The position numbers and the translations under genes were made by a program. A DNA stretch of 64,000 nucleotides from a virus (lineage: Duplodnaviria > Caudoviricetes), in the IMG/VR virus record IMGVR_UViG_3300025018_000147, positions 7,403 to 71,402 of that record; one strand, 5' to 3'. Below are positions 3,701-60,581 of this stretch, piece after piece. The notes under the pieces were generated by a model. That model saw only the letters and a list, made by a program, of their open reading frames with translations, was not told the DNA's origin and made no database searches. Every line of letters begins with the position of its first letter. Within the stretch, counting starts at the first letter, position 1.

Positions 3701-6700
3701 CCCTGCCAAGTACCTCTGGTGAAGAGTGCTTTCTTTTTAGTATCAATGGGTAATCGAGCTAAAGCTCGAACTAGGTTCGGATCGGTTAAACCATGAGAAA
3801 TAAACTCATCCAGATGACTGGAGTATTTCTTGGTTTGCTTTAATCCAGTAGCTGTATTAACAGTCGTGACTTCTTTTACTGTTTGATTTCCAAAGATATA
3901 ATCCCACTTCGCCTGTGCCTCGGGAGTAACAACACCTGTTGGATCGTCGAGGAAGTCTTCCGGTCGGATTACCTCTTTTGCCATATCATAGAGCACTTGT
4001 GCTTGACGATTCAGATAAGAAGACATCTTCAAACCAGAATGTGTAATCGCATGAATAAGCTCATGGATGTATACCTGTTCTGCTGGAGTATTCGGATCAA
4101 GTCCCATGGCTTGAGCACGAAGGAATATTTTGTTCTGTTCCGGAACGAAGACACCATTCGTATTATTTGTTACTTGGGTCTTCAGGTAGAGATCAACCGG
4201 ATTCATTACCTTAGTGAGAATATTATTCATGATATGGCGCAGATGACTATCATGGGAATCGGTTACTCTATCGAGTCCTATAGTCTTCAAGCGATCATAC
4301 ACACCTACTGCATTCTCTTGGTTTAATTCGATATGTTCATCGTATTCATTTGAATCCAGGGATACTGGATCATCCGCATTACCAAGTACAGTATGCGCTT
4401 CACCCTCTGTGCGAGATTGCATGGATACATAGGTATCCCTTGCTGCATAGTCATAAGGCTTACGGGAAACAACAGGTTTATTTGGTAATGTATCACTGAC
4501 ATAGGTTGGATAGCTACTTTCCCATAGGTCTGCTATCTCATCAGCAGATTTCTGCATAGCCTCTATTACAGCTTTCTGTGCAGTTTCCGCTTGTGCATCA
4601 AGAGTAGAAGTATCAATTGCTGCAGGCTCAAATGATCCTTTAACCTCTTTAGGCTTAGCCTTTTTCTTGGTTTTGGGTACTGTATAACCTTTTGGTCCCC
4701 AATTATAGTGGTTCAAGCCAGTAACCATATCCATCAAGATAGCTTTATTCTTTACAGCTCGATCTGCAATATCGTCCATACGAGAAGATACTATTTGTGC
4801 AATTATCTCTTCATCAGAGAGTTTGGATTCTGGTTGTGTTTCTCTAAATTCATATATTACTTTATCATAAGGCCGTACAACTGTTCCATCAGATTTTGTA
4901 TATCGAGAGATACCTATTCGTTGAAATTCTGCCAGCATATCTAAAGCAAACTGTATCTTGCTGTCTTCATCAGTGATATTTGTTTCCTTGAATTCATTAA
5001 AAGCAGCAATAGTCTTGTGCAACGATGCATTCACTTCATGCGGAATACTGTAGTCTCTGAGTGTCTCAAACATGATCTCATTGAGTGCTTCATTCAGAGC
5101 AACTACTCCATCAATACCTGTGTAGAAGCCGTCATGTACATTCAGTATAGCTATCCCTCTACGCTGCATAAGCGTAGATATACTAGCATCCACCATCTGT
5201 GTGAGTGCTACCATCGGTGACACACCAACAGAACCAAGAATACCCTTCTCAGCAAGATGACTGGACTTCTTATGGAGTTTCTTAGATGCATATTGTTGTT
5301 CAACAGATTCACCGGTATAGCTCTTGGTAGGATCTTCAGTAGCCATATCCAACAGACCACCTTCAAACGGAGTAGCTACCGATGGGTACATATCTTTAAG
5401 CTGTTCGTCTATCTCTGCGTACTGTTCCTTGGATAAATCAACATAATGGTCTACGTCTTCCTTTGTCTTTTTATTTTTCTTTATGTAGAGTATACCTAGC
5501 TGCTTTGCATCGATGAGTTCCTGCTTCTTCTTTGCTACCAGATGAGCACGAACTACATTGTATAGAGCTGCAGCCACATTCATAGAATTGTTTACGGCAT
5601 TCTTCGCATATTTGATATTGCCGTAAAGCTCGTCTATACCATTGACTAATGCTCTACCATGATTTGCTTCAATATGATTGTGAATAGCTGCTTTTGTAGC
5701 ATCTGGAAGAGTGAGTTTCAATACGGCTGCTGGAATGAGTACTCCTTTACTATCTTTGAGTTTATCCACATCCACGGTAAACACATTTTTTGCGTCACTG
5801 TTTAGAGGGAGATTAGCTAATCTTCGCATATCATCAACTAAGTTGATAAGATCGTCTATTTTATTGTTCGCTGCTATGTCTTCCAGTTTAGCTGTGAAGA
5901 TGTCTTCTATGAGTGTTCTGGATAAACCATTGATAATAGATTCTTCTCCTGCGCTATAGCCGGTTTGCATTACCGGATCTTTCATTAACTTTCGTAGTGT
6001 ATCAGTAGCATACCCGTCATTATCCACCATGGAACCAAACAGTCTTTCCGCAATATGCAATCGAGTTAATTCTTGCTTAACTGCCCTGCTTCTTGGAGAA
6101 TTCTCATTTTTGATTTCATTAAATTCATCAGTAAGTACTTTCTCTCTTGCCAGGAGTGCTCTCCGCCAAGCAATACCTCCTGATTTGTACACATCCATGT
6201 TCCATGGTTTTTGGAGATGCTTGGCTACTTCTCCCTGCAGTTTATCAAAAGAGAAACCACCATTACGTAAGGCAAAGAGTATTTCCGGAGAGATATTATT
6301 GACCAGCATCTGTACCATCAAGATTACCGGACCATTAGACATACCATCTATTTCTATAGGAATATCTGTTGTAAATTCCAGAATGTTATTACCATGCAGA
6401 TTTGACTGATCTGATTTAGCTCGCATATAACGAGTGTACTCTACAAGACCTTTCAGAGTACTTATCTTCTTACCACCAGCACGAACACCAGTCATGATAT
6501 CATCAAGAGCTTGTGGGTGCTTTTCACCAAGCTCGGCGAGAGCTTCCATGTCTAATTCCTTAGAACCAGTAAAATTAAGCAGTAAGTCTATTGCTGCTCT
6601 AGCCTTGAAAAATACTTCCTTCTCCATAGCTTCTTTGACTAAGCGAAGTACTTCATCCTTGCCGCCTTTCTTGCTATGCTCTAAACCAATAGACAAAGCT

Positions 6701-9700
6701 ACTGCATCGAGGAACAGTGTCTCCTTGAATGTTTCGATTTCGTTATCACTATCGAGGGCAAAGGTAGATTTCCACTCAGACATGGTAAAAACATATCTGT
6801 GAAACTTATCTCCCTGTGAATTTATTTTTCCTACCTGGTGTACCCGTAAATTCTTGACTATTTTAGCCGGGATATAGAAGAGTGATTTAAGTCCTTTAGG
6901 CTGCTTTGCAGCCTCTTCCATCCAATCCAGCCAAATATCTAAAGAACGCTCTCTATCCTTATTTGCACTTGCAATAGATGCTGCTTTAGAGATGTGTTTC
7001 TTCGATGGATCTTCATTACCAATGAGTTCCAGTAAACGCTTTCTACCAAACAGCATAGCTATGTTTGCTGTGTTATGGCTCAGTTCGTAGCTTTTGTTCA
7101 CATTGTTTATGACTGCTCTGCTTTGTGCTACTGTAGCCAGATTCTTCGTCTTTTCTATAGCCATGCGAAACTTCTTACCAATCTTATACTTCTCCCAGGA
7201 ATGACCTTCCTTGGCAGCTTCACCAGTAAACAGTCTATCCCATAGCTTTGGTGATGCTTTCCAGGCTTGCTGGATACGATATATTGGTTCTATTGGTTTA
7301 CGTTCTTGATTCTGTTTACCCGGTACTGGTTTAGCCACTTTGACATGGTAAAAATTGCTCTTGGTTTTACCGTTGTTTGCTTCATTTCGATTATGTGAGG
7401 TAAAGAATTTATTACTTGAACGAGTGATCTGTCTCAGCGGATTACTTGTTATTCTTTTTTCATAATCCAGATCATCCAAGACGCTTTGTTTCAGTCCCTC
7501 TATACCGAAAGTACCGGGAGCAAAATCCTGTTTAGCAGTCTCTGAATATAAACCAGTATACGCTACCTTCTGCTCTACCATGTTCATCTCTTCTAAGGTA
7601 GCCAGTGCAGTCATAGCCAATGCTCGTTGCATACGTTCAGTGTAGTCTACAGGTGCATCCTTTGTCGTTGTGATGCCTACAAGTTTAAGAATGTCTCTAC
7701 CAAGAGTTTCAATAAGGAATGTCTCTGATACACCGATATCGTGCAGAATACTTCTTGCTTGAGCATTGAGTTCAGTGCCATCTTTTAAACCAAGAAGACT
7801 GGTCATAGCCTTATCTTCATTCTCCAGTGTTCCTTCACCTTGGGTAGCCAGCCACTTATAGGTAACTGTTGCCATGGCTCCACGGACATTCTCCGGGATA
7901 ATTCCATCAGGAGCGAACCATTGTAAGAAATCCTCATAGTAAAACATCTGTTTAGACTTCGGTTTAAACACTGATTTCTGTACTGTTTCACTGAAATATG
8001 AAGCATACCTTTGCATATGGTCAAGCATGAATCTATCATCAGCAGTGACGAATCGTTTACCGTTAAAGACAGAAGTTAGTTCTGCCAGCTTACCTTCAGT
8101 AATGAGTTGTTTCAATGTCGGGAAGAAGTTATCGATCATCTGCAGGACATTGTTCTTGGCGTTACCTGCTGCCTGGAAGAAATAGTGCAGAGGATTAATG
8201 GTCTGATAGTCTTTTGGTTTGAGTTTATCTACTGGAGTACTATTCTCGGGAAGTGTGGTCAGATCCTTTGCTACGGGAGATTTACGGTAGAGTTCTACAG
8301 GAGCTTCCTCTTCAACTTTGTCGCTCACTTTTTCAGTATTCTGAGCCTCAACCGTATTTGTCTCTATTTGCTGAGACTCAACGAGAGCTGCAGGAGTTTT
8401 TTCACTTGGTTCAACAGGTTTATCGACCGATACATTATCCCCGAGCTGCTCTGTTGAATCTTTTTGAAAAGTCTTTGCATAGACACTTTCAATAGCTTTT
8501 TTACCTACAGTACTAAGTTTTCTAGTACCTATACCTGCAAAATTAGGGGTAAGAATAGGCGTATCTATTTTCTCCCAACCTTTATTACTTTTCTTGAACC
8601 AAGACTCTTTAGTCTGATCGAAAACATAAACAGGTTTTCTTTCTCGAATAGCCATAGCTACAGCGTAGCCAGTACCACCATCTGTGTATTCGCCCTTAAT
8701 AGTTCCTACGGCAAAGACGGCATCAGCGTTTTTAACCTGCTGCCAGTTACGGGCAAGCAGCCCTTGTACATAAGGCTTGTTACTCCAGTATTTACCTAAA
8801 TCTTTAGCTGCCTGTTTAGCTTTAACCAGACCTTCTTTAAGCTGTTCTGGTGTAATTTTTACATTACCCTTGGGAGTTTTATCTTGATAGTAATGATTAC
8901 TGATAACTCCGTAGGGTTTGCCTACATCTCCCCAAGCAGAATCCGAACCAAGAGCACCTCCTGAATGATTGGTGTATTTTACTGTTTCTGGTGTAAACTT
9001 TGTTTGAGTATTGCTTGGAGTTATTTTAGGTTCAGTATTCTCTTCTGTCTTTTCTTTTGTATCTCCCTGCGTTCCTTGAGATATACTTCCCTCTTTTCCT
9101 TGAGGGTTAACCAAGACAGTGGTTTTGGCAGCAGTCGTATCGGCCACCGTATTTCCAGTCGCTTGAATAGAATCATTTATTTCTCCTTCAACGGTAGGAA
9201 TTTCATTTTCATAGGAATCTACTGGTGGACCTTCCGGTATAACATCTACCTGTTTAGGAGCTGTATTTGCTGTTGTAGAAGGAGTTACCTCCTCGGCAGT
9301 AGGATTGGGTGTCTTGGTTTGCTCTTGTCGTACAGGAACTGTTATAGGTGATTTCCTGCCATACTGAGGAAACAACCCATTAGCTACAACGACTGCTTGT
9401 TCCAGCGCATTAGCTTCTTCTTCAATATCATTGAGAGTATTCAACCAACCTTGTGTATTTGGATTGATATCATAAGGCTTACCCCCGCGTTGTTTCGCTA
9501 GTTTGCCATTAAGCAGAGCTACATCTTCCGGATTACGCGGTATGCCCTTAGCGTCTGCTTCGGTAAGTCTACGTAGTGTACTAGCCTTAATACGATGCCC
9601 AGCAGCAAAAGAAGACAGCCCATCTAATGCTTTAGCGGCTGCGGGTTCATTCGTTGCTTTTAGATTCTGTGCTATACTGCTTATATATGAATTAATACCA

Positions 9701-11970
9701 ATGAAACCATCACTCTTGATACCAGTAAAAACATCTGCCTTGACATGTTTACTGGTTTTATTGGCTTGGTTAATTTTCTTGGTTTTATCCGTTATTTGCT
9801 GCTCGAATTTACCAAGAGTATTCATTTCCTCGACTAACTGTTTTGTTTCCGGAGAAGTATGAGGATTGCTACGTATGGAATTTAAAGTAGAACCAAGAAC
9901 TTTAATATTCGTCTTACCCGTGTTTTCGTAGATATCCTTAATGATACTACTGATCTCTTCCGGATCTTTACTATTGGCTTTTTCCACTACCTTATCAAAG
10001 ATCTCCGAGACAGTCATCTCTGTTGGATGCATGGCTTTAATGGTACGATCCATGTATTCCAGGGTATCTTCTGATTTAATGATTTCAGTGTTCAGCTCTT
10101 TACGTCTGGCAGTCTCCGTAGCACTGAGTCCTTCGGGAGTCTTGGATTTTTCAGTAAGAACATCTATCTCTCGATACTTCTCCCCGATAGTGCTAGTGTG
10201 TCTACCGTACACTTTCACTGCTTGTTCAAGATTATTGAACTTCTCTTCCGAAGTAACATTTTCTCTATCAGAGAATTTCTTCAGACTATCAATAGCAACT
10301 ACCGGATCATAGTCCTTGCTGGTTGGATCGATGAATTTTGTGATGTCTCCTGTCTCTTCAACCTCTTTCATCCTAGGCTTGTAGGTAGGACTGGCAGAGG
10401 TACGATTAATGTTTTCTTCTTGCTTCTGCTCGGGAGTCTTCTCTTTGAATGCACCAGTTATAGCTTTACCGGTACCCTTTACAATAGCAGAACCAACAAG
10501 ACCAACTCCTGCTGCCCCAAGTATTGCTGCTTTAGCTGCGGTTGTACCGACAGATGCTGCCGGCCCCATACTTCCACCGATAGCTGCGCCAAGACCTGTC
10601 TGCAGCAGAGCACTTTCAGTAGAGTCTACTGGTTTAAATTTAGAGGTATAGTCCTCGATGATGGATTGAGCACCTTCGGTTAGACCTTCGGTATGGGTGT
10701 TTACTACTCCAGCACCGAGCTTTTCAGTAGCTTTCATGGCTACCCTGGTGGTGAGCTTAGGAACACCCTCAGCAGCTTTATTGAGCTTATTCAGAAGCAT
10801 CTTCCCGCCCTTACTGGCACCACTGATAGTATAGTCGGAGAACATATCCAGACCGCCTGCGGCGTATGCCTGAGTCTTAATAGAAGATCTTTCCTTATCG
10901 GTAGGAATTCTACCCTTCTCGGTGATGAAAGACTTATAGGCATCTGCCTCTATCTGACCGGCTAAACCAAGAGATTCCAATGCACTCGCAGCAAGACCGG
11001 TTTTACCGAATCCAGCCAGCATAAGATCAACTGCTTCAGTGGATAATAACTGTAGAGCCTCGGTAGGATTCTTTGCCATCTCAAAGACAGAGCGAAATAC
11101 AGTATCAAGTACAGCAGGAGTACCTTTGACTAAACCGACAGCATAGTTGCCTTTAGAGAAATCATCCTTGGCGGCATCAGTCGCAGATACATTTTCCTTT
11201 GCTATCTTGCCGATACGTTCTTCCATCTTAGCACTGAGTGCTGGATTAAAATTCTTGGTTCCAGAGAGTACCTCATCAAATCCTTTGACCAGATCATTCG
11301 CCTTACCCGCGTAATAGTTCCCTCGTTCAATGAGTGTGCGGTTGCTTGAGTGTATTGGTTCAGGCGTACTCATTACCCCACTATCAAGTACTTTCGATTC
11401 TTCCGGAGTGAGTTTGTTCTGCAGCAGCATTGCTTTGAATTCAGCCTGCTTTTGTTTTACCTCTCCGGGAGCAAGCTCATTCTTTACCAGCATATCGGCA
11501 AGTTTTGCATTAAATTGTGGGGTAATACTCTCAAGCTCTTTGTATTTCTGTTCCTTCTGGTATGCCTCAATTGCCCCGTCTTCGATATAGCTACGGGCAT
11601 CACTGCTCAGGATATTCGGAATATAGCTTGCACCTCTGCCAGCCATTTCCGCAGCGTTCATTTTCAAACCTGCACCGATGTTCTTTACTTTAGGCCAGAT
11701 TCCACCGTATTCCAGATCTGCAGTGGTGACTGCTTTACCAGCATTCTGGGCACTGTTCGGATCGAACTTATCCGCTTCAAACTGGAGAGACTGTTGTATG
11801 TTTTGGTTCTGACGGAGTTGATCCTGCTCGTAACGTTTATTGATTGTTGCCAGCAGATCTGAACCACCCATATTGAGTTGTTTTTCTTTAGTAGCTGAGA
11901 CAAGGATTTTACTCTTTGCCTCAGTCAATGACGGTTTGCGTTCTTCTTTTATATCGTCAAAACCATACAT
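799..11970 (-). CDS. Virion-encapsidated RNA polymerase (N4 gp50-like), 3723 aa
   Basis: Single-subunit RNAP motifs A (IEIDGMSNG), B (RKLMKDPVMQTGY) and C (NVHDGFY); giant size; nearly Cys-free (one Cys seen by eye); N4-type synteny; contains an HExxH motif (HELIH) and a SLOG-like insert. Confidence 0.95.
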   Translation of the reverse strand: MYGFDDIKEERKPSLTEAKSKILVSATKEKQLNMGGSDLLATINKRYEQDQLRQNQNIQQSLQFEADKFDPNSAQNAGKAVTTADLEYGGIWPKVKNIGAGLKMNAAEMAGRGASYIPNILSSDARSYIEDGAIEAYQKEQKYKELESITPQFNAKLADMLVKNELAPGEVKQKQAEFKAMLLQNKLTPEESKVLDSGVMSTPEPIHSSNRTLIERGNYYAGKANDLVKGFDEVLSGTKNFNPALSAKMEERIGKIAKENVSATDAAKDDFSKGNYAVGLVKGTPAVLDTVFRSVFEMAKNPTEALQLLSTEAVDLMLAGFGKTGLAASALESLGLAGQIEADAYKSFITEKGRIPTDKERSSIKTQAYAAGGLDMFSDYTISGASKGGKMLLNKLNKAAEGVPKLTTRVAMKATEKLGAGVVNTHTEGLTEGAQSIIEDYTSKFKPVDSTESALLQTGLGAAIGGSMGPAASVGTTAAKAAILGAAGVGLVGSAIVKGTGKAITGAFKEKTPEQKQEENINRTSASPTYKPRMKEVEETGDITKFIDPTSKDYDPVVAIDSLKKFSDRENVTSEEKFNNLEQAVKVYGRHTSTIGEKYREIDVLTEKSKTPEGLSATETARRKELNTEIIKSEDTLEYMDRTIKAMHPTEMTVSEIFDKVVEKANSKDPEEISSIIKDIYENTGKTNIKVLGSTLNSIRSNPHTSPETKQLVEEMNTLGKFEQQITDKTKKINQANKTSKHVKADVFTGIKSDGFIGINSYISSIAQNLKATNEPAAAKALDGLSSFAAGHRIKASTLRRLTEADAKGIPRNPEDVALLNGKLAKQRGGKPYDINPNTQGWLNTLNDIEEEANALEQAVVVANGLFPQYGRKSPITVPVRQEQTKTPNPTAEEVTPSTTANTAPKQVDVIPEGPPVDSYENEIPTVEGEINDSIQATGNTVADTTAAKTTVLVNPQGKEGSISQGTQGDTKEKTEENTEPKITPSNTQTKFTPETVKYTNHSGGALGSDSAWGDVGKPYGVISNHYYQDKTPKGNVKITPEQLKEGLVKAKQAAKDLGKYWSNKPYVQGLLARNWQQVKNADAVFAVGTIKGEYTDGGTGYAVAMAIRERKPVYVFDQTKESWFKKSNKGWEKIDTPILTPNFAGIGTRKLSTVGKKAIESVYAKTFQKDSTEQLGDNVSVDKPVEPSEKTPAALVESQQIETNTVEAQNTEKVSDKVEEEAPVELYRKSPVAKDLTTLPENSTPVDKLKPKDYQTINPLHYFFQAAGNAKNNVLQMIDNFFPTLKQLITEGKLAELTSVFNGKRFVTADDRFMLDHMQRYASYFSETVQKSVFKPKSKQMFYYEDFLQWFAPDGIIPENVRGAMATVTYKWLATQGEGTLENEDKAMTSLLGLKDGTELNAQARSILHDIGVSETFLIETLGRDILKLVGITTTKDAPVDYTERMQRALAMTALATLEEMNMVEQKVAYTGLYSETAKQDFAPGTFGIEGLKQSVLDDLDYEKRITSNPLRQITRSSNKFFTSHNRNEANNGKTKSNFYHVKVAKPVPGKQNQERKPIEPIYRIQQAWKASPKLWDRLFTGEAAKEGHSWEKYKIGKKFRMAIEKTKNLATVAQSRAVINNVNKSYELSHNTANIAMLFGRKRLLELIGNEDPSKKHISKAASIASANKDRERSLDIWLDWMEEAAKQPKGLKSLFYIPAKIVKNLRVHQVGKINSQGDKFHRYVFTMSEWKSTFALDSDNEIETFKETLFLDAVALSIGLEHSKKGGKDEVLRLVKEAMEKEVFFKARAAIDLLLNFTGSKELDMEALAELGEKHPQALDDIMTGVRAGGKKISTLKGLVEYTRYMRAKSDQSNLHGNNILEFTTDIPIEIDGMSNGPVILMVQMLVNNISPEILFALRNGGFSFDKLQGEVAKHLQKPWNMDVYKSGGIAWRRALLAREKVLTDEFNEIKNENSPRSRAVKQELTRLHIAERLFGSMVDNDGYATDTLRKLMKDPVMQTGYSAGEESIINGLSRTLIEDIFTAKLEDIAANNKIDDLINLVDDMRRLANLPLNSDAKNVFTVDVDKLKDSKGVLIPAAVLKLTLPDATKAAIHNHIEANHGRALVNGIDELYGNIKYAKNAVNNSMNVAAALYNVVRAHLVAKKKQELIDAKQLGILYIKKNKKTKEDVDHYVDLSKEQYAEIDEQLKDMYPSVATPFEGGLLDMATEDPTKSYTGESVEQQYASKKLHKKSSHLAEKGILGSVGVSPMVALTQMVDASISTLMQRRGIAILNVHDGFYTGIDGVVALNEALNEIMFETLRDYSIPHEVNASLHKTIAAFNEFKETNITDEDSKIQFALDMLAEFQRIGISRYTKSDGTVVRPYDKVIYEFRETQPESKLSDEEIIAQIVSSRMDDIADRAVKNKAILMDMVTGLNHYNWGPKGYTVPKTKKKAKPKEVKGSFEPAAIDTSTLDAQAETAQKAVIEAMQKSADEIADLWESSYPTYVSDTLPNKPVVSRKPYDYAARDTYVSMQSRTEGEAHTVLGNADDPVSLDSNEYDEHIELNQENAVGVYDRLKTIGLDRVTDSHDSHLRHIMNNILTKVMNPVDLYLKTQVTNNTNGVFVPEQNKIFLRAQAMGLDPNTPAEQVYIHELIHAITHSGLKMSSYLNRQAQVLYDMAKEVIRPEDFLDDPTGVVTPEAQAKWDYIFGNQTVKEVTTVNTATGLKQTKKYSSHLDEFISHGLTDPNLVRALARLPIDTKKKALFTRGTWQGIIGSNFYETLVNLFNRIMDVVMNNYGKSKPTDNVATELERLAMRLATVDSKHKTMIGKAMDKYDGTYSKIAEWSNEKIKAIVAKTPVGKVNRTVKNLTAMLEDQDSKAGQMMRDIRNHIDGIHMGFGKYIVREVRGLTDRLAPIHRLINTKDIIVDKARMEAVSTYMEHLKSLWQRDLIPTEKIALLKGAIKTDMSVLLEDYSMNDITAMMDNEKTLDSAIFEIIRLIKSNKALQSHINFYQRQAQSLGLYMSHGKTTEGNTLLNAHLIGSLKNTKHEGKLTTEQALAAEQLVDKLATLYALKFTPSSHKLIFTKLLKEDPDAVRDVLVQHREIQRQAKKDLFFDNPNMIIKGYTKEITDTKVNILAAAGDAVTEAELVAQGYTKSKLPIKRDKDDKEQTPIYVYTSDTGSINDWHATIASLTGNGHKGTDVFDVYAQLDNNGTDARANHKRLVQKKQDALNDQFNAPMVPYNRDREYGNAMLPLVNTDGHVVKYRYMMNEDTKDDVLKKHNEYDAVLSAMAGQILDKVGTTYINRELVSALKDMYNSEYKDRFRNYVEIGPNARDLKHRELYYMLPEQARIDIAEIWGDDTMMVAQDVVDLAFGFRKYSITQAFNKNPEDRAFIEKMIVNIFQSIFKNKGITRAKQVEEFMIQATKVAKNNIIVRGLQVTIGNYVSNVLFCKAKGVTNANIHKWHNEAMAGIIRYVTDKKNLEQAKLKLIAAQNHKPTATLTQVTLDKTTQKIKDDIVRLENTIALNPVTDVVDAGLMQSIIDDIETTSVQSPYPGMFEQLGEQLAKYTPDKLATIGKEIVMAEDTQSYKILNNLVKTTDFIGRYIMYKQYTTVEKGDLKMDHNEAVAQVLHDFVNFNLPSHKMIEYGNQIGLIWFSKYALRILKPIKDMVKEKPFQAIMTLVFASVYALPSVFESIPFISKNPLNVFGNPLSALTDSSDEILTATSGEWVLDQL

Positions 11971-31064: not shown

Positions 31065-33677
31065 TTATACAATGTATGATCCTAATCCAGAAACAGTTTC
31101 TTCCTCTGCTTCCATTTCCCAGATGCTGTCTGAATTAATAGAAACATTGAACTCCTCGCTTGGCTTCCAGGTAGTAAGACTTCCTAGCATGGAAATAGTG
31201 TCAATAAAATCGTCTTTCTTGCTTTTGAAACCCATATGGGTAGCAAGACTCAACTCATTAATCAACTCAATCATGATAGCGTTCTGTTTCATCTCAACAG
31301 GAAAGAAAATCTGATGCGTCTTGAAGTAAGGCAAGACAATATTGAACCGGACCATTTTATTAGTATTCGGCCTAATACCTGCTTTGCCTTTATTGCCCTC
31401 GGAGGCAAGAGTGAAATAGATATTACGTACCAGCATCTGCTCCTCGATCCAGGAGATAAATCCTGTCTGCTGGCCGCTGACCTCGACACCTACCTGCTGT
31501 GGCTTATACATCTGTGCTAAACGAAATAGATCATCAATATTTTTATTCATGAGCTGTCGCTTGCAGATACCATCAACCCAGAACCAATATCCTTTATTAT
31601 TTAAGGCCCATACCGAAATCACGGAGAAATCATTATGTTGTTTCTCCTCCACGGCAAAGTCCGTGGTAATATAGAAATTGAATCTTCCTTTATTCATCAA
31701 TACATGGTTGCGTTTGTACCAACCAATCTCATCATCTAGGATCAGTCTTTCTTCCTCGGATATAATGCGTAGCATAAGTTCCTGATTAAATGTGTTGATC
31801 TTACCCATTTTCATAGCCTTATCATACTTACCCTTGACGTATTCATAAGGAAATCGATCCGGCCAAATACTACTGAATTCTTCTTTAGTACAAGGAAACT
31901 TCTCACAAATAGGAAAGACATTGACTGCCCAGGCTCCTGACTCAACTGCCTTATACAAAGGATCTCTGGCATTGAATGGGGTACCTGACCAGATGATCTT
32001 CTGATGGGTAGGATGAAGTGCATAATCAATAGCCTTATAGACAGTATCTTCAATAGAACCAATAACAGTTGCTGACCTGGCATCCTCATCGGACAGGAGA
32101 TCGTCTAGTATGGCGAGCTGTGGACGGGTATTCAGCTCGACAGTACCCCTAACCCCAGTGTTGTGAGTGCGAGTATAGTCATTCGTCAAGAACTCTTTGC
32201 TCTGATTGTCTACAGCAATACACTGACTTGGTTCATCCGCAATACGACAGACATTTATAATGGAAACGTTGCAGCTCTTAAAACCATGCTGTCTGAGTTG
32301 TTTTCTAGGCAACCTGAACAATCGAGCGTTTAACCAGATACCTACCTTCCATGATACAGAATGTTGCTTTTCAACTTGAGTAGCCTTCCACCGTTTAGCC
32401 GTACCACCCAGAGATCGAACCAAACGAATAATGTCAGCTATTAACTGAGGAGATGTAGAACAAAAGGATACTTTACCCTCTCCGCTAATAGTACCGTCAG
32501 TATCAAGTAGACCTTGTAGAACGGACAAACGTTGATCTGCTGATCCAGTAAAATACACCTCGGGGATGTGTTTAGTAGCCATGGAACAGCCCCTTAAACC
32601 AATCTCCTCCATCTCAGAGTAAATATTTAATAAGCCGATTGATAGAACATTATCGTTACGTAAATCCAAATACTGCTTGCCTTTAAGGTAGGGGATGTTG
32701 TGCAGGTAGTGCATCATGTCTTCCCTATGGGCATGCAGTATGTTTGACCCATCACTTTTCATAGAACCATCACCTAACAATAGACCTAGAGTGTACGGGT
32801 CTATGGGAAAGTGTTTCTCACTGAATTCTACAGGTTCTGTGTTTACTATCTGATATGTAAATCTTTTAGTACCGTTAGGTGCTGTGTGATATATAGGTGA
32901 GTCTAGTATCTCCAACGTGGTTAGCACACGAGGTATCCCATATTTTTGAACAGAATTTAAATGATCCTCACTCACTTTGATCTCTCGCCCATCGGATAGT
33001 CTTATGACGTACATTGGCTTATTGAAGATTTCACTCTTTGCCAGTATGCGCGTACTCTTTCCGTCAGGTCCGTATACAAGATCGCCTACACAGCATTCAC
33101 CTATAGTCGTTGTACCCGTGTCAGTGTAAAGCGTACTGTCCAATGCTAGTGCTTTTGCGCCGTGGCTTGAAACGACGAACTCATTGCCATCCCTGTTCTT
33201 GAAGTACCATCTGATGTCGGTAAAGCGTACGTTAGGCACATAATGCATGAGAAACTCACTGTTCTCTCTCCTACGCTCCAATCTCAGACGCATCTTCTTC
33301 ACCCCATTCTCGATGCTATCCGAGACATACAGGGCGTAGTTGACTCTTCCGAAGTTAGGGAGCTTGCCGTACACAGCCAGGTAGAGAAACAAGTATTCCC
33401 CCATGACGGAGGTCTTAGCAGTCCCACGGGCGCACATATTGGCTATATTCGCCATTGGTCCGACTATCTGATCAAGCATCTGAAAATGCACTACGGGAGA
33501 AGCATGCTCCTCGCCCTTCACTCCGTTCACCAGCTTGATGAAGTTGATAAACTCAAGAGCGAAGTCACTCGGAACATAATTCGGATCGACCGCGTAGGAC
33601 ACTCTGTTCAGGTAATCCTCAACAGCGATTACCTTTGTCTCCCCCTCAGTCATGGACTTCCTCCAGGGAGCCTTCAA
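31065..33677 (-). CDS. Terminase large subunit (N4 gp68-like) containing an intein
   Basis: CARGTAKT Walker A; RPQLAILDD Walker B; nuclease motifs ITTDFA and DDFIDTISML. Confidence 0.93.
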   Translation of the reverse strand: MKAPWRKSMTEGETKVIAVEDYLNRVSYAVDPNYVPSDFALEFINFIKLVNGVKGEEHASPVVHFQMLDQIVGPMANIANMCARGTAKTSVMGEYLFLYLAVYGKLPNFGRVNYALYVSDSIENGVKKMRLRLERRRENSEFLMHYVPNVRFTDIRWYFKNRDGNEFVVSSHGAKALALDSTLYTDTGTTTIGECCVGDLVYGPDGKSTRILAKSEIFNKPMYVIRLSDGREIKVSEDHLNSVQKYGIPRVLTTLEILDSPIYHTAPNGTKRFTYQIVNTEPVEFSEKHFPIDPYTLGLLLGDGSMKSDGSNILHAHREDMMHYLHNIPYLKGKQYLDLRNDNVLSIGLLNIYSEMEEIGLRGCSMATKHIPEVYFTGSADQRLSVLQGLLDTDGTISGEGKVSFCSTSPQLIADIIRLVRSLGGTAKRWKATQVEKQHSVSWKVGIWLNARLFRLPRKQLRQHGFKSCNVSIINVCRIADEPSQCIAVDNQSKEFLTNDYTRTHNTGVRGTVELNTRPQLAILDDLLSDEDARSATVIGSIEDTVYKAIDYALHPTHQKIIWSGTPFNARDPLYKAVESGAWAVNVFPICEKFPCTKEEFSSIWPDRFPYEYVKGKYDKAMKMGKINTFNQELMLRIISEEERLILDDEIGWYKRNHVLMNKGRFNFYITTDFAVEEKQHNDFSVISVWALNNKGYWFWVDGICKRQLMNKNIDDLFRLAQMYKPQQVGVEVSGQQTGFISWIEEQMLVRNIYFTLASEGNKGKAGIRPNTNKMVRFNIVLPYFKTHQIFFPVEMKQNAIMIELINELSLATHMGFKSKKDDFIDTISMLGSLTTWKPSEEFNVSINSDSIWEMEAEEETVSGLGSYIV
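32160..33152 (-). mobile_element. 331-aa intein with LAGLIDADG endonuclease in the terminase
   Basis: Begins K|ALALDSTL, ends YTRTHN|T; LAGLIDADG motifs LGLLLGDGS and LQGLLDTDG; removal joins SHGAK-TGVRG and leaves about 539 aa. Confidence 0.92.
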
Positions 33678-50020: not shown

Positions 50021-52057
50021 ATGAGGCATATTCTATTTGGTTCAAATGCTGAAAGTTTAAGCATTGCTCTCTTGGTGAAAGAATCCTGCTTCCGTAAACA
50101 AGCAATTGAAGAGAATTATATTCGACAGCTTACGGAAGCAGGCGTTAAACCAAAAGAAATAATCGCTTTCACTCTTGCATACAAAACTCCAAAGAGTGCT
50201 CCGGCAGCACTGAGAAAAAAGTATCTTGCTGAGTTACTCCCGGAGATAGATCAACTCGGGATAAAAATACTCTATTGCACTGACGGAGAATACTTCAAGA
50301 CCCTCACCAAGAATGCTAAGGCAGAACCTCATTACGGATATGTTTGTCCTTGTGCTATCGAGGGCTACGAGCATCTTGGCGTAATCATCGGTGTGAACTA
50401 TCAAGCACTGTCTTATAACCCGACTCTGCAGGGGAAACTGGAACTCTCTCTGCAGGCACTGATTAAATTTAACAAGGATACCTACTCTGAACCAGGAACA
50501 GAAATCATCCACTCGGAGTACTATCCGGATAACTTACACGACATCGAGGAAGCTCTACAGGCGCTACACCAATATGACCAACTCACTTGTGACATAGAGG
50601 CATTCAGCCTCAAGTTCTATGATGCGGGTATAGGTACCATAGCATTTGCTTGGGACGAACATAACGGTATTGCCTTTGCTGTAGATTATACAGATGGAAA
50701 GCAGGTATTCAATGCTCCAGTACGAGAGCTGCTTAAGCAATTCCTCACGGAGTATCGGGGAACGCTTACATACCACAACATATTTTATGACGCTAAGGTT
50801 CTCATCTACAATCTGTGGATGAATGACCTCGGTGATAATGTCAGTATGCTAGACGGTATTGAGCTGCTACACAGCAAGTTTGATGACACCAAGCTGATAG
50901 CCTACCTTGCTACCAATAACACCGTGAAGAATGAACTGGGGCTTAAAATCTTGGCTCAACCGTTTGCCGGGAATTACGCTGAGGATGACATCAAGGATAT
51001 CCGGTTGATTCCCTTGGTTCAATTGCTGCGCTACAATTTAATCGACACACTTTCAACATGGTACGTTTACAAGAAGTATAAACCAATAATGATTGAGGAG
51101 GATCAATTACACGTTTATCTTGATACCTTCAAGCCTTCAGTCAAATTGATCCTGCAGACTGAGCTTACTGGTATGCCTATTTCTCCAGAGAAGGTACAAG
51201 AAGCTAAGATCATTCTGACGGATATTGTCAAGGAGCACAGTGATGCTCTGCAGAACTCACATATCATCAAGGATTTTCACTATATCCAATTAGAAGATCT
51301 GGCAGCGGAGATGACTCATAAAGCAGTGAAGAAGGTCTATACTGCTGACGATCAGATCATTGCTAGGAATATATTTAATCCTGGTTCAGATAAACAGCTT
51401 CAAGAACTCATTTACAATTACCTTGGCTATGAGGTCATTGATACTACCGATTCAGGCTTGCCAGCAACTGGTGCAAAGACTTTAGAGAAACTCATCAATC
51501 ATGCAAAATCGGATTCTCACAAAGAAATCTTTGAACACCTTATCGGACTTAGCAAGGCAAATAAAATACTCACCAGCTTCATTCCAGCCTTCGAGAAGGC
51601 ACAGCAGCTACCGGATGGAAGTTACCGAGTATACGGTAATTTTAATCTTTCTGGAACGCAGAGTGGAAGACTTTCTAGTTCGGATAGCAATATGCAAAAC
51701 TTACCCAGCGGATCAAAATTCGGAAAGCTCATAAAATCATGCTTTGTATCTGACCATGGGTGGTTATTCACTGGAGCAGACTTTGCTAGCCTGGAGGACC
51801 GTATTAATGCATTACTCACATCTGATCCAAATAAACTCCGTGTATACACAGACGGATATGACGCACATAGTTTAAGAGCTTACTATTATTTTGGTGATCA
51901 AATGCCAGATATAAAAGAAGCCCTACCTACAGAAAGAGTATTTAAAATAATAGTAGACAACCGTGTTGTATATGGCAAAAGTGGAGATTTTATTATAGAC
52001 TTACATAATAATAAAATTCCAATAGAGGACTACTATGAAACTAGTAAAAGGATTTGA
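50021..52057 (+). CDS. Family A DNA polymerase, fragment 1 (3'-5' exonuclease through motif A)
   Basis: TCDIEAFS; HNIFYD; RYNLID exonuclease motifs; GTQSGRLSSSDSNMQNLP; GADFASLEDRI; DAHSLRA. Confidence 0.92.
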   Translation: MRHILFGSNAESLSIALLVKESCFRKQAIEENYIRQLTEAGVKPKEIIAFTLAYKTPKSAPAALRKKYLAELLPEIDQLGIKILYCTDGEYFKTLTKNAKAEPHYGYVCPCAIEGYEHLGVIIGVNYQALSYNPTLQGKLELSLQALIKFNKDTYSEPGTEIIHSEYYPDNLHDIEEALQALHQYDQLTCDIEAFSLKFYDAGIGTIAFAWDEHNGIAFAVDYTDGKQVFNAPVRELLKQFLTEYRGTLTYHNIFYDAKVLIYNLWMNDLGDNVSMLDGIELLHSKFDDTKLIAYLATNNTVKNELGLKILAQPFAGNYAEDDIKDIRLIPLVQLLRYNLIDTLSTWYVYKKYKPIMIEEDQLHVYLDTFKPSVKLILQTELTGMPISPEKVQEAKIILTDIVKEHSDALQNSHIIKDFHYIQLEDLAAEMTHKAVKKVYTADDQIIARNIFNPGSDKQLQELIYNYLGYEVIDTTDSGLPATGAKTLEKLINHAKSDSHKEIFEHLIGLSKANKILTSFIPAFEKAQQLPDGSYRVYGNFNLSGTQSGRLSSSDSNMQNLPSGSKFGKLIKSCFVSDHGWLFTGADFASLEDRINALLTSDPNKLRVYTDGYDAHSLRAYYYFGDQMPDIKEALPTERVFKIIVDNRVVYGKSGDFIIDLHNNKIPIEDYYETSKRI

Positions 52058-52742
52058 AAACAACTATGAAATTGATCAAGACGGCAACGTGTTTAACCTT
52101 AAAACAGGTAGGCAAAAAATGCCTACTTTACTACCTGTAGGCTACTATTCTTTAAATTTGTATATCAATAATGTGGGTCATTGGCGATACATACATAGAA
52201 TGGTAGCTGAAGCCTATCTGGAGAATCCAGATAATAAACCGGAAGTAAATCATATCGACGGAGTAAAAACAAATAATACTGTCAGTAATCTAGAATGGGT
52301 AACAAGACAAGAGAACTCTCTACATGCCTATAAACTAGGTTTGAGCTACCAAGAAAAAAATTTGAACCAAGCACAGTTAATGAGAATACTAATTGATTTC
52401 CTTGGAGGAAAAACACTTACAGAACTGGCTGTAGAATACAAAACAGGTATATCCCGGCTGTCTATCAATATACGCAATTTTGCTAAAATAACTAATTTAG
52501 AAGATGCGTATGAACAAATGATTTACAATCAAAAAGTAAATAGAAATATTGTAACTGCTACAGCAAAACGCAGAATGGTTGATCAATTTAATAGTGATGG
52601 GGTATTCCTAGCAACCCATGCGTCTTTAACTGCTGCAGCACGAGCATTAGGTAAAGATAGTTCGGGTACTATATCAAATGCACTAAATCCAAGTAAAGAC
52701 CAATCAATGGCCTATGGCTATATATGGAGGTATTCTAATTGA
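52035..52742 (+). CDS. HNH homing endonuclease with C-terminal NUMOD1-like domain, splitting the DNA polymerase
   Basis: YIHRMVAEAY; VNHIDGVKTNN.VSNLEWVT..EN..H; C-terminal VDQF..DG.FL..H.S...AAR.LG. Confidence 0.88.
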   Translation: MKLVKGFENNYEIDQDGNVFNLKTGRQKMPTLLPVGYYSLNLYINNVGHWRYIHRMVAEAYLENPDNKPEVNHIDGVKTNNTVSNLEWVTRQENSLHAYKLGLSYQEKNLNQAQLMRILIDFLGGKTLTELAVEYKTGISRLSINIRNFAKITNLEDAYEQMIYNQKVNRNIVTATAKRRMVDQFNSDGVFLATHASLTAAARALGKDSSGTISNALNPSKDQSMAYGYIWRYSN

Positions 52743-52870
52743 GTGAATTCAATTTGAAAGACATTGTTTCAATAGAAGAAGTAACTACCAAAGAATACAA
52801 TATTAATGTAATAAATTCTATTGCAGGGAGGTATGGGGCTTTGAGACAAAAATCAAAAGCCCCAACTTAA
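52739..52870 (+). CDS. DNA polymerase fragment 2 (43 aa, TTG start), ending at a TAA inside motif B
   Basis: RBS ggaggt; MSEFNLKDIVSIEEVTTKEYNINVINSIAGRYGALRQKSKAPT*. Confidence 0.75.
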   Translation: MSEFNLKDIVSIEEVTTKEYNINVINSIAGRYGALRQKSKAPT

Positions 52871-52872
52871 TT

Positions 52873-53502
52873 TTTGCTCTCACTTACGCAGGTACATGGC
52901 GAACCATCATGCAATCCGCAGGATTAAGTGAAGAGGTTTCAAAACGAGTAGAGAGTAACTACCACAAACTTTACCATGTTTCAGACACCTGGATTGATGG
53001 AATACTCAATCAAGCACACACAGACGGCTATATACTTGGTGCTTTTGGCATTAAGATCAGAACACCCATCCTGGCCAAGACTCCTCTTGGTTCAAACAGA
53101 CTCCCCTATCCAGCCACTGCTGAACGTAGATCCGCAGGCAATGCCAAGACACAGAGCTACGGCTTATTGAACAACAGAGCTGCTGTGGAGTTTATGAGTA
53201 GGGTACATGCTTCTCCCTATCGATATGACATTCTCCCCTCAGCACTGATTCATGACGCAATCTACTGCTTAGCCAAGGATCGTCCGGATGTAGTAAAATG
53301 GGTCAATGATAATCTCATCGACTGTATGCGTTGGCAGGAACTGCCTGAGCTACAACATGATGTAGTTAAACTCTCAGCCCAACTGGACGTGTTCTTTCCC
53401 GATTGGGGACACGCCATGACTCTAAAGAATGGTATATCCAAAGCAGAAATACGTGCTGCGGCAAAGGCACATATAGATAAATTAAAGGAACCAAAACAAT
53501 GA
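52873..53502 (+). CDS. DNA polymerase fragment 3 (rest of motif B and motif C), out of frame with fragment 2
   Basis: FALTYAGTW in frame with track ORF 52909; A..RSAGNA..QSYGLLN; LIHDAIY (motif C). Confidence 0.85.
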   Translation, partial: FALTYAGTWRTIMQSAGLSEEVSKRVESNYHKLYHVSDTWIDGILNQAHTDGYILGAFGIKIRTPILAKTPLGSNRLPYPATAERRSAGNAKTQSYGLLNNRAAVEFMSRVHASPYRYDILPSALIHDAIYCLAKDRPDVVKWVNDNLIDCMRWQELPELQHDVVKLSAQLDVFFPDWGHAMTLKNGISKAEIRAAAKAHIDKLKEPKQ

Positions 53503-55040: not shown

Positions 55041-55613
55041 ATGAATTTAATAAATGAATTAGTAAATGGATTAAAAAATAAAAATAATAATTTTCACTTT
55101 ACTGCTCTCCCTTGGAATGTGCGATCAGTTATAGCAGAACTGTGTACTCTCATTGATCGCAGAGATGTTGTACAACCTGAACCAATAGAAATTGATTATA
55201 TTAGCCCTTATCCTTTAAAACAGGCTAAACATGCAGATGCTGGTTATGATATTTCCAGCAATGAAACTAAACCTGTTTACGCACAAACTTCAGCAATATT
55301 CAGTACAGGCTTGTATATGGCTATTCCTGAAGGATATGTTGGTAAAGTAGTCTCTCGGTCAGGATTGTCTTTTACGCATAATATTGAAGTAGGTGCAGGG
55401 CTCATTGATTCAGGGTACAGAGGAGAAATCAGAATCCATCTGTACAATCATGGTACAAACAAATACACGGTCAACAAGGGTGACCGTATTGCACAGATTA
55501 TCTTACTTAAACATGAGACTCCAGAGTTTACTTTAGTCGATTCTCTCGATGAAACAGAGAGAGGTATCAACGGTTTTGGGCATACCGGGGTAGCTGTAGA
55601 AGAAGCGGTATGA
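55041..55613 (+). CDS. dut: Trimeric dUTPase with N-terminal extension
   Basis: AGYDI; SRSGL; GLIDSGYRGE; RIAQII; RGINGFGHTG. Confidence 0.93.
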   Translation: MNLINELVNGLKNKNNNFHFTALPWNVRSVIAELCTLIDRRDVVQPEPIEIDYISPYPLKQAKHADAGYDISSNETKPVYAQTSAIFSTGLYMAIPEGYVGKVVSRSGLSFTHNIEVGAGLIDSGYRGEIRIHLYNHGTNKYTVNKGDRIAQIILLKHETPEFTLVDSLDETERGINGFGHTGVAVEEAV

Positions 55614-57373: not shown

Positions 57374-58447
57374 CTAGTGTAAAGTAATAACAATTTTGCT
57401 TTCATTTAGTGTGGCAATTATGTTTCTCCACCTGAAAATTGCTGATAATAAGTCTACGTCAGTATCATGATTGATACTAACGCTTATGCTTATCTTACCC
57501 GCAGCATCAAAGGTGTATGTTACATTACTGCCCGAATACATTGCTGTGTCTACCAGTACTTCAAGTATGTTTGCTGCACCTACCTGCGTTGAGTAAGCCA
57601 TATCTTTAAAAATACTACTTTTAACGGCTGTATCAAATAATTCCTGTATAGCACTACTGATAGCGGTATTACTATCTGTAAGTATAGTAGTAATATTAGC
57701 TATTCTTGTTAAAGAATCAAATCCAGCAGCACTTTGTGCAGTGTTACTTATCATGCTTGCTGAATCAAATAATCTGTACAATGCATTATATATATCTGCT
57801 TGTGTATCCGCATACACTGTAACGACATTACCACTATTAACAGAACTATCCGCATAATATGTAATAGCATTTACAATAGAACTTTGTAGATCTCTCAAAC
57901 GAATAATACTATTAGCGGTATGCGCTTTACTGTCTATTCTAGTCTGCTTTAGTACATGATTTACTAAAAGCGTATCCGCTATTGATTTACGCATACGAGA
58001 TATTGATATACACACATCAGAAAGAATACTCCGCTTATTGTGAGTATTCACCTGGCTATCAAAAGTAACAGCAACACTCCACTGCGTTAATGCAGTGACA
58101 CTGGTATCCACATATCTATTGAGTGTATTTGCAATACCTATACTGCTATCGGTTACATTCTGTTGTGTGTTACTTACTTTAACTGTGCTATCAAATATGT
58201 CTAATACGTTATTGCTAGCTCTTACCCTGGTGTCAGGAGTAGTGATCTGAGCAACATGTATAGAGGTAAATGTGCCATACTCCCTTTGTCGAAGTATGCT
58301 GATAGCTGCATTTGTATTAATAGCTATAACCGGTTTATTGGTTATAGCCATGGTACTATCAGAAGTATATCCTACGACAATACTGATATCACCCGTAGTA
58401 AAAGGTGCTGAACCAAGAGAACTCTCTGCTAGTGCTCCGTAGTTCAT
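57374..58447 (-). CDS. Virion protein with degenerate D(S/T) beta-repeats
   Basis: Repeated DS/DT...I.N pattern; tail-module context. Confidence 0.55.
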   Translation of the reverse strand: MNYGALAESSLGSAPFTTGDISIVVGYTSDSTMAITNKPVIAINTNAAISILRQREYGTFTSIHVAQITTPDTRVRASNNVLDIFDSTVKVSNTQQNVTDSSIGIANTLNRYVDTSVTALTQWSVAVTFDSQVNTHNKRSILSDVCISISRMRKSIADTLLVNHVLKQTRIDSKAHTANSIIRLRDLQSSIVNAITYYADSSVNSGNVVTVYADTQADIYNALYRLFDSASMISNTAQSAAGFDSLTRIANITTILTDSNTAISSAIQELFDTAVKSSIFKDMAYSTQVGAANILEVLVDTAMYSGSNVTYTFDAAGKISISVSINHDTDVDLLSAIFRWRNIIATLNESKIVITLH

Positions 58448-59025
58448 TACTCAACCCACGCGGGTAACAAAGTGAGAAGATCATTGACAGAGGTAATAGC
58501 AACCGTACCTGCTAAGGCATCAGCCAGTATCTGCCGTGCTGCTTCCCATACTTGGACATTCCATGCCCATACATTAGTACAGAATGTTTGATGAGTATAG
58601 CCGCTTACAGTGGCATAATTAGCACAAGAATGCGCATCGCTAAATAGAGTATTATTAGCTGTGTTATATGCGTCGATAGGTGCTTGAATATAAGCCACTA
58701 CAGCAGATTCACAATGCTGTATTAATACTTGTTGCTGGCGTAGTGTTTCTGACACAATAGCCGCATCAACTTCTTCTTGAATGCTATATTTATTAACAAT
58801 ATTCCATGAACGATGATAGGTATTATTTACTTTAATCAATTCACCCGGTTCAGTATTCTGTAGTATTGTCACATCTGGTCGGGTTGTTTCTATAATAGGA
58901 TAAATATTAAATTGGATTACATCTTCTGCTGTCCATCCTTTACGCATTGATGTGTTTAAATATCCAGGTACTCTACTTCTGGTGAGTTCCTGTGCTGTGT
59001 TTTCTGCATACCATTTCTCTGCCAT
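58447..59025 (-). CDS. Tail fibre assembly chaperone-like protein
   Basis: C-terminus ...WN..VW....QIL.....G......LL..LP.WVE; directly downstream of the RBP/DGR cassette. Confidence 0.6.
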   Translation of the reverse strand: MAEKWYAENTAQELTRSRVPGYLNTSMRKGWTAEDVIQFNIYPIIETTRPDVTILQNTEPGELIKVNNTYHRSWNIVNKYSIQEEVDAAIVSETLRQQQVLIQHCESAVVAYIQAPIDAYNTANNTLFSDAHSCANYATVSGYTHQTFCTNVWAWNVQVWEAARQILADALAGTVAITSVNDLLTLLPAWVE

Positions 59026-59036
59026 TATGCGTGTCC

Positions 59037-59072
59037 TTATGAAAAGGTGTATAAATTATTGTATCGTATCAT
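59037..59072 (-). pseudogene. Stub of a DGR reverse transcriptase (MIRYNNLYTFS*)
   Basis: Sits at the canonical RT position after the TR and spacer; resembles the M(K/I)RYxNLY N-terminus of DGR RTs; truncated after about 9 codons. Confidence 0.65.
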
Positions 59073-59185
59073 AGTATTTACTTATGAGTCCCGGAATCTT
59101 CGGTTTCCCTACCAATACCTATGGGACATTCTTTTATATTTTGCCAAGAGGCATGGTCTTATGTCTGTACAACTTTAATAAGTAG

Positions 59186-59299
59186 AGCTGGCTGCTGATA
59201 TTAATCGAATCATTCGCTGAATCATTATTCAGATTCCAATAGAAAACCTCGGTATTCAAACCATTCGAGGTATTCCCGCTGAGTATACCTACCTGCCAA
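59186..59299 (-). repeat. DGR template repeat (TR)
   Basis: Gap-free 114-nt match to 59353-59466 with 23 mismatches, all at TR adenines. Confidence 0.93.
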
Positions 59300-59342
59300 T
59301 GAGGCATAAAACCGTATCTTTTATACTGTGTGCTACATGAAT

Positions 59343-60581
59343 TTAGTACGACAGCCGGCCGCCGATATAAATCGAAGCACCCGCCGAATCATCATTCAGA
59401 AGCCAACAGAAAACCCCGGCAGGCAAACCATACGAGGCAGACCCGCCGAGCATACCCACCTGCCAACCTGTACTCTGGTAATAATAATCAGGTATATAGG
59501 TGCTATCCGTACCACCGACACTGGCAGGTAAGAACCCCCGTGACTGCGCTTCGAGAGTTTTTACCCACCCGTTTGCGTTAGCTAAAGTTATGCCTAAACC
59601 AGTGTAATTTGTTGACGTATCATCGGCAAAATTATAATCGTCGTTACACACATAAGGGATATTCCCATTGATGTTAATACCATCAACCCATTTAAATAAA
59701 TTACCAAAGAAATTTTCAATACCCCGGTACGTCATGTACGCTGCATTGGTATTTCCACCTACACTGTTTGTACCATTACCATCACTGTTAGATTTACCTG
59801 AAACACCTATATAGGAGTCTTTTATCCATGTTCCTCCAGATATCTCAGTTCTACCTATGCCAATCATAGCTTGAGAGTTCCAGTTAGCGTACTCGACTAT
59901 ATAGAGCAACTGTACCGCAGAGACTAAATCATAATCCTGTTGTCTCCAGCCAGCTCCTCTATTTGCAGCGATAGTGCGAAACTCTGCTCGTGTTTCATCC
60001 ATCATCGGAGCCTTACCGGACACAGAGCCTAACTTGTCATTAGCCAGGTCTATAGATCCTCCCGCCCAGTTATTTGCTAACCCGGTACCGCAGTCAACAT
60101 AGCTGCTCGTTCCTGCGTCATAACCAATACCCTCGTATGCACCTATGTAACGATGCTCTACTGCTTCCCCATTCTTCATAAATGCAGGATGCAACGTATA
60201 TCCAACTTCCTCATAGGTTGCTATTTCCCATGTATGTGTTGTACCGGAGTAACTATATTTATAATAAAATGCAGGTATCTCTACCATCACCTGACCGTCA
60301 GCACCTGTCAGGTTAGCAGCAGTGACACCATCTTCTTTGAGTGTGGAATCATCCGCATCCAAGTAATATTGCACAACACCCGCATCACTTAAAATACATC
60401 TCCGCATTAAAGCATGTACAGGTAGCAGCTCATTGGATAGAGATGTGCCTACTGCCTGTCCTGCTGTATCCCCGGTTCTAGTATAGCCTCCAGTCGCTTG
60501 AGACTCATCCCAAGACACGCCATAGGTGGACATTACAGGACCACTTTTACCGCCTGATGCCAGTATTTTTAATATACTCAT
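59343..60581 (-). CDS. DGR target: receptor-binding tail protein with a C-terminal C-type-lectin (Mtd-like) fold
   Basis: YRGIENFFGNLFKWVDG; ends GG.A..G..AGVF.W.LN.DS......IGGRL with the VR in the last ~40 codons. Confidence 0.85.
   Translation of the reverse strand: MSILKILASGGKSGPVMSTYGVSWDESQATGGYTRTGDTAGQAVGTSLSNELLPVHALMRRCILSDAGVVQYYLDADDSTLKEDGVTAANLTGADGQVMVEIPAFYYKYSYSGTTHTWEIATYEEVGYTLHPAFMKNGEAVEHRYIGAYEGIGYDAGTSSYVDCGTGLANNWAGGSIDLANDKLGSVSGKAPMMDETRAEFRTIAANRGAGWRQQDYDLVSAVQLLYIVEYANWNSQAMIGIGRTEISGGTWIKDSYIGVSGKSNSDGNGTNSVGGNTNAAYMTYRGIENFFGNLFKWVDGININGNIPYVCNDDYNFADDTSTNYTGLGITLANANGWVKTLEAQSRGFLPASVGGTDSTYIPDYYYQSTGWQVGMLGGSASYGLPAGVFCWLLNDDSAGASIYIGGRLSY
59353..59466 (-). 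repeat. DGR variable repeat (VR)
   Basis: Codes WQVGMLGGSASYGLPAGVFCWLLNDDSAGASIYIGGRL; pairs with the TR. Confidence 0.93.

Follow-up and report, generated by a model that had tools for sequence, protein, structure and literature searches.

The right end of an N4-like phage genome recovered from aquifer metagenomes contains two closely similar repeats, one at the 3′ end of a tail protein gene and one in the non-coding DNA that follows it. An earlier note interpreted them as the template repeat (TR) and variable repeat (VR) of a diversity-generating retroelement (DGR) diversifying a receptor-binding protein. The locus raises three questions: whether the repeats form a true DGR pair, whether the element is able to operate at present, and how it came to be located in a genome of this type. 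The analysed DNA (hereafter, the window) comprises 64,000 nt and corresponds to bases 7403–71402 of a 71,402-bp linear IMG/VR record, estimated by CheckV to be 96% complete. All positions given below without further specification refer to the window, and the features of the locus are listed in Table 1.

Table 1. Features of the DGR locus and adjacent genes (window positions)
Feature	Position	Strand	Description or basis
DGR target gene	59343..60581	minus	412-aa tail protein with a predicted C-terminal C-type-lectin-fold variable domain; phrog_5302 match and predicted structure
VR	59353..59466	minus	residues 372–410 of the 412-aa target; stop codon three codons further on
VR-TR interval	59300..59352	minus	last three target codons, stop codon, 43 nt of non-coding DNA between the stop and the start of TR
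TR	59186..59299	minus	non-coding copy of VR, 33 adenines
Spacer RNA, Rfam RT-17 RNA (RF03020)	59072..59158	minus	between TR and the RT stub
RT stub	59037..59072 (59072-59037)	minus	MIRYNNLYTFS, 11 codons + stop; alignment with L023
192-aa ORF following the DGR	58447..59025	minus	60%-identical homologue located 3′ of RT and the 99-aa ORF in L023

The TR/VR pair and its target protein

Alignment of the two repeats with MAFFT, followed by a scripted count, showed that TR (59299–59186) and VR (59466–59353), read on the minus strand, can be superimposed over 114 nt without gaps at an offset of 167 nt. The adenine-only divergence reported in the earlier note was reproduced exactly: all 23 mismatches fall on TR adenines of the minus strand, while the remaining 81 non-adenine positions are identical. 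Of the 33 TR adenines, 23 are altered in the VR (14 A>G, 5 A>C and 4 A>T) and 10 are unaltered. The changes are concentrated at codon positions 1 or 2 (20/23) and mostly affect AAT codons of the TR. The probability that 23 randomly placed mismatches would all coincide with adenines (33 of 114 positions) is 1.3e-16, which rules out chance or ordinary divergence of a duplicate. The repeats therefore constitute a genuine DGR pair, as proposed.

A GC-rich palindromic stretch at the 3′ end of the VR (59354–59372), inspected as an IMH/hairpin signal, does not contain a clear stem-loop. A scan of the whole genome, in which changes at adenines were allowed, detected no second VR, and a second VR or a remote target was thereby ruled out. 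A 57-aa ORF predicted over the TR was rejected as spurious, because it matches the C-terminus of phrog_5302 only through its VR-copy content.

The product of the target gene matched the phage family phrog_5302, annotated as “tail protein” (E 2.6e-93), with no match in Pfam or NCBIfam. This family has more than 3600 environmental matches, and the Mtd_N domain is present in some of the homologues. An AlphaFold2 model of the protein, built from 48 homologues (pLDDT 81, pTM 0.87), was compared with known structures. The best match was TaqVP, the variable protein of the Thermus aquaticus DGR (5vf4; Z 21.4, rmsd 3.1 over 255 residues, 21% identity; Foldseek E 1.7e-5), which covers most of the target; unlike TaqVP, a cellular protein, the target is a member of a family of phage tail proteins. 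Lower scores were obtained for Treponema TvpA (Z 8.6) and Bordetella phage Mtd (Z 6.9), and further matches included formylglycine-generating-enzyme (FGE)-type proteins and many C-type lectins. The C-terminus is thus predicted to have the C-type-lectin fold of DGR variable proteins, in agreement with the fold assumed in the earlier note, and the target is probably a receptor-binding protein.

Homologues of the target (35–49% aa sequence identity) were also found in the phage genomes L005, L006, L007 and L008, two of which are 96–100% complete. These genomes contain neither a TR nor an RT; the protein family therefore occurs outside DGRs as well.

The deletion scar and the spacer RNA

A search with the RVT_1 profile gave no match at E≤10 across the whole 71.4-kb record, and tblastn with the reverse transcriptase (RT) of a close relative of the cassette (L001) also gave no match in the record; the presence of the RT gene elsewhere in this sequence was thereby ruled out. 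Profile searches of the window did not identify any Avd-like ORF.

The fate of the RT gene became apparent from the closest relative of the cassette, a 2455-bp contig (L023) found through its 194-aa, 60%-identical homologue of the 192-aa ORF downstream of the DGR of the window. The order of elements in L023 is: partial VR, TR, spacer, RT (RVT_1 match, 1.3e-13), 99-aa ORF and 194-aa ORF. Nucleotides 1–383 of this contig correspond to window positions 59429–59049 (the VR-TR-spacer region, 81% nt sequence identity) and nucleotides 1688–2242 to positions 59060–58505, with 1316 nt of the L023 layout (384–1699) missing from the window. In a three-way alignment of the window with both sides of L023, codon 8 of RT (TAC) is joined to codon 97 of the 99-aa ORF, which directly follows a TAC triplet. 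The deletion junction is placed between 59049 and 59048, with TAC as the microhomology. The resulting stub is composed of RT codons 1–8 in frame with the final three codons and the stop codon of the 99-aa ORF, and it is located where the RT gene begins in every relative. In IMG/VR, the contigs with the most closely related targets (L001–L003) gave a matching picture: homology with the window continues through VR, TR, approximately 110 nt of spacer and the first eight RT codons, and then ends. Contigs from two sequencing runs (depth 31 and 5.6) span the junction without differences. The 11-codon stub is a scar of a microhomology-mediated deletion, and neither a divergent nor a relocated RT gene.

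An ORF of 98–99 codons, overlapping or abutting the RT stop codon, is conserved in several RT-bearing relatives (L001:3350–3646, L023:1412–1711, L026:12615–12911). Its product had no match in Pfam, NCBIfam or PHROG. Its neighbours in the Atlas of predicted structures are viral hypothetical proteins, including one cluster that is partly Phi29 SSB-like and may be taken as a lead only. This ORF, lost from the window together with the RT, may encode an accessory factor not yet described for DGRs of the RT-17 type.

The 192-aa ORF downstream of the scar had no match in Pfam, PHROG or NCBIfam and no relatives in IMG/VR; three homologues were found among 5.8 billion proteins, one of them adjoining an intact RT. 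Its Atlas structure neighbours were Phage_tail_APC and DUF4376 proteins (TM 0.5–0.65), and the product is possibly a tail-fibre assembly chaperone, which is again a lead only.

The spacer between the TR and the stub matched the Rfam family RT-17 RNA (RF03020) over the full length of the model (41.8 bits, gathering threshold 40.4; E 1.5e-6), at the expected site immediately 5′ of the RT start codon. RT-17 RNA directly precedes the RT ATG in L001, L015, L020 and L023, and RT-18 occupies the same place in L010. Unlike the usual setting of this RNA, the window copy is followed by the eight RT codons of the stub and by no RT gene. The spacer hairpin and the GUAUUGGUAGGG...CGAAGAUUC motifs are common to the window and its RT-bearing relatives, and sequence identity between the window and L023 amounts to 93% in the spacer, 78% in the TR and 62% in the gene that follows. 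The spacer as a whole showed no additional RNA stability relative to shuffled sequence (z -0.13), and its consensus fold contains few covarying pairs; the Rfam match is better evidence for the spacer RNA than the folding statistics. A literature search found no report of RT-17 together with a DGR. No terminator-like site was found between the target gene and the TR-spacer region, and continued production of the TR RNA is therefore probable.

Origin and history of the cassette

The backbone of the genome bears out its earlier description as N4-like. It encodes a virion RNA polymerase (3723-aa ORF, 799–11970, minus strand; phrog_2206, 1206 bits) and an N4-type portal protein (phrog_1216, 775 bits), and it is collinear with a 71.1-kb IMG/VR relative (G014, 96% complete) from the left end to position 55613. 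The structural proteins are 28–33% identical to those of Schitoviridae isolates (KPP21, Littlefix, BUCT194). No Phage_integrase match was found in the record, in a search whose control was positive in 14/14 genomes. The genome is that of an N4-like podovirus, and its gene content suggests a lifestyle of the virulent type.

Two other genes of the window may have an unusual structure. The ORF of the terminase large subunit (31065–33677, minus strand) encodes 870 aa, of which the N-terminal 500 residues match DnaC-like, primase and other terminase profiles; just 364 residues align with the G014 homologue (75% identity), and the ORF could contain an insertion or an intein, or represent a fusion. 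The DNA polymerase (50021–53502, plus strand) is apparently split into ORFs of 678, 235 and 197 aa.

The right-end ~8 kb of the genome (56000–64000), a tail module encoded on the minus strand, has no counterpart in G014. It contains (i) a 321-aa ORF with a CBM_5_12-like stretch, (ii) the DGR target gene, (iii) the 192-aa ORF, (iv) a 357-aa ORF and (v) a 114-aa BppU_N-like ORF. The product of the 357-aa ORF has a single distant relative in IMG/VR and no match besides itself among 5.8 billion proteins. Judging by its gene content, this region looks like a swapped host-recognition module.

The distribution of the cassette was examined in the 24 closest N4-like relatives, collected by means of the portal protein (51–63% identity; 6/24 at least 90% complete). 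Neither RT nor the target gene was found in any of these genomes. Since the right-end module is also absent from G014, the DGR appears to be a horizontally acquired part of the swapped tail module and no trait of the N4-like backbone, and its interpretation as a feature of the N4-like lineage had to be abandoned.

Cassettes of the same type are frequent elsewhere. The target proteins of L001–L003 are 71–72% identical to that of the window, and the genes are arranged in the order target, VR, TR, spacer and RT (352 aa). The TRs and RTs of these three contigs are identical and their VRs differ at A positions, which indicates that this type of cassette is active where the RT is present. Tail tube, tape measure protein and integrase genes mark the long contigs with an intact cassette (L026–L028) as temperate siphoviruses. 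Isolates and RefSeq genomes that combine this target with this RT include crAss-like phages, Psychrobacillus phage Perkons and Yersinia phage fEV-1. The RTs of crAss-like phages, Perkons, fEV-1 and L026–L028 are 36–52% identical to the L023 RT and are encoded a few hundred nt downstream of the target gene. Unlike these cassettes, all of which are RT-bearing, the window has just the 11-codon scar; L001 and L026–L028 also keep the 98-aa ORF after RT, of which only the last three codons are left in the window. RT-bearing related cassettes are common in environmental samples.

In run X1 (depth 93) and run X4 (depth 24.6), a contig of ~10 kb outnumbers the phage. It contains short matches to the spacer hairpin (59133–59160) and to a motif of the target gene (59667–59687), 620 nt apart, and is probably another RT-17-type DGR that shares these aquifer and cold-spring samples with the phage. 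A different TR-like sequence was observed in a low-depth contig of X1.

These data weaken the argument of the earlier note that DGRs, being mostly described in temperate phages, would be novel here. DGRs in virulent podoviruses are already on record in crAss-like phages, which carry the same type of cassette. That part of the claim which concerns N4-like phages stands: a full-text literature search turned up no description of a DGR from either N4-like phages or Schitoviridae, and one Schitoviridae phage screened with MyDGR was negative (PMC13220884). The cassette is a common type, newly seen in an N4-like phage.

The element may also be compared with the DGR of Bordetella phage BPP-1 (mtd/TR/brt). 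The two share adenine-specific TR-to-VR differences, a VR at the C-terminus of a tail protein with a (here predicted) C-type-lectin fold, and a TR downstream of the target gene; the Mtd_N domain of some target homologues is a further link, and BPP-1 Brt is 31% identical to the RT of the window’s relatives. Unlike BPP-1, a temperate phage, the window phage is an N4-like podovirus lacking an integrase, and its DGR has neither RT nor Avd, a spacer of the RT-17 type and a target nearer to TaqVP than to Mtd.

Evidence that the cassette once functioned was provided by the VR itself. It shows 13 non-A mismatches to the TR of L023 and none to its own TR. The VR thus fits the resident TR and not that of L023, which indicates that the most recent retrohoming took place after the window and L023 lineages had separated, with the resident TR as template, and hence that an RT once served this very cassette. 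The statement, made in the past tense, that this lineage used a DGR is supported. The description of the pair as diversifying at present is not: with the RT and the conserved 99-aa neighbour gene deleted, the TR/VR pair cannot diversify autonomously.

We propose that the cassette arrived horizontally in the right-end tail module, a variable part of the genome. While the RT was present, reverse transcription of TR RNA would have been accompanied by misincorporation at adenines and would have yielded a cDNA that took the place of the VR; ~38 codons at the C-terminal end, on the ligand-binding face of the C-type-lectin fold, would thereby have been rewritten. A later deletion of 1316 nt between two TAC triplets would have left RT codons 1–8 and the final three codons of the 99-aa gene, with the target, VR, TR and RT-17 spacer RNA staying intact. 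Without its RT the cassette would be unable to diversify alone, and the present VR would be a frozen allele. We consider it very probable that the locus represents a DGR cassette on a tail protein of an N4-like phage, disabled by this RT deletion, with the VR retained as a frozen receptor-binding allele.

Within this explanation, the deletion may have preceded the transfer. An RT-less block consisting of the target, VR, TR, spacer and 192-aa gene would then have been imported, and the DGR would never have run in an N4-like phage. The sequence of events is all that distinguishes this variant from the proposed history, and a minor share of our confidence in that history is assigned to it. It would account for the absence of the cassette from all 24 N4-like relatives, for an 8-kb module that is foreign in its entirety to the nearest relative, and for the temperate siphovirus background of the long contigs with an intact cassette; against it, the RT-less copy was found in no other background, and the very rare homologues of the 192-aa protein include one encoded beside an intact RT. 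Deletion ahead of transfer is regarded as possible, though rather unlikely.

Present state of the cassette and its significance

VR variation was viewed in assembled Logan contigs of public runs, in which rare variants are invisible and of which X2–X4 cover the region partially. A contig of depth 31, from the sample that is probably the source, continues unbroken through the VR. The parts of the VR covered in two further aquifer runs (59378–59466 and 59408–59466) are identical to the window. No A-site VR variants were thus present in the contigs of three runs, an observation limited by the fact that contigs hide rare variants, and this uniformity is loosely consistent with a frozen VR.

A cassette that cannot diversify autonomously might still be diversified with outside help. 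An RT-17-type RT, with an accessory protein, would in this case be supplied by a co-infecting phage or a host prophage and would use the resident TR-spacer RNA. The avd, TR and brt components of the Bordetella phage DGR do act when expressed in trans (PMC5758913), and potential donors may exist, given the frequency of RT-bearing related cassettes in environmental samples and the short match to the spacer hairpin in the more abundant contig of X1 and X4. The state of the element would also permit such use, with a spacer RNA that is intact, scores above the Rfam gathering threshold and is better conserved than its flanks, with no non-A mismatch between TR and VR, and with a TR-spacer region that is probably still transcribed. 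A very recent deletion would explain the preserved TR, spacer and non-A identity equally well. The VR segments are identical across the contigs of three runs, with no variant branches at depth 31; no cognate RT was linked to the same host, and a virulent phage would need co-infection or a matching prophage. Servicing in trans therefore seems improbable, and the more specific proposal of an RT-less “passenger” DGR in a virulent N4-like phage, diversified only when a cognate RT is provided in trans, is slightly more doubtful still. If true, it would represent a parasitic or shared-engine mode of DGR existence, invisible to RT-anchored surveys.

That the RT was simply missed, being encoded in the remaining ~4% of a linear record 96% complete and possibly acting on a non-adjacent target, as DGRs may do (PMC5758913), or that the form without RT arose in assembly or represents a defective minority variant, is very hard to reconcile with a stub placed exactly at the RT start of the relatives, with the in-frame fusion of two gene ends that marks a true deletion scar, with identical contigs over the junction in two runs, and with genome ends collinear with those of G014, itself without RT.

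The preferred reading, i.e. a DGR disabled by loss of its RT, has several consequences. In the searched literature, no DGR footprint in an N4-like phage precedes this one. RT-first surveys, performed with MyDGR-style tools, would overlook RT-less TR/VR pairs of this kind, which makes the abundance and the trans-servicing of such pairs a testable question. The locus provides an unusually clean natural case of DGR death, in which a single microhomology deletion left the target, TR and spacer RNA pristine. More generally, the distribution of the cassette suggests that DGRs travel with tail-fibre modules into virulent podoviruses beyond the crAss group, where the loss of RT would fix one receptor-binding allele.
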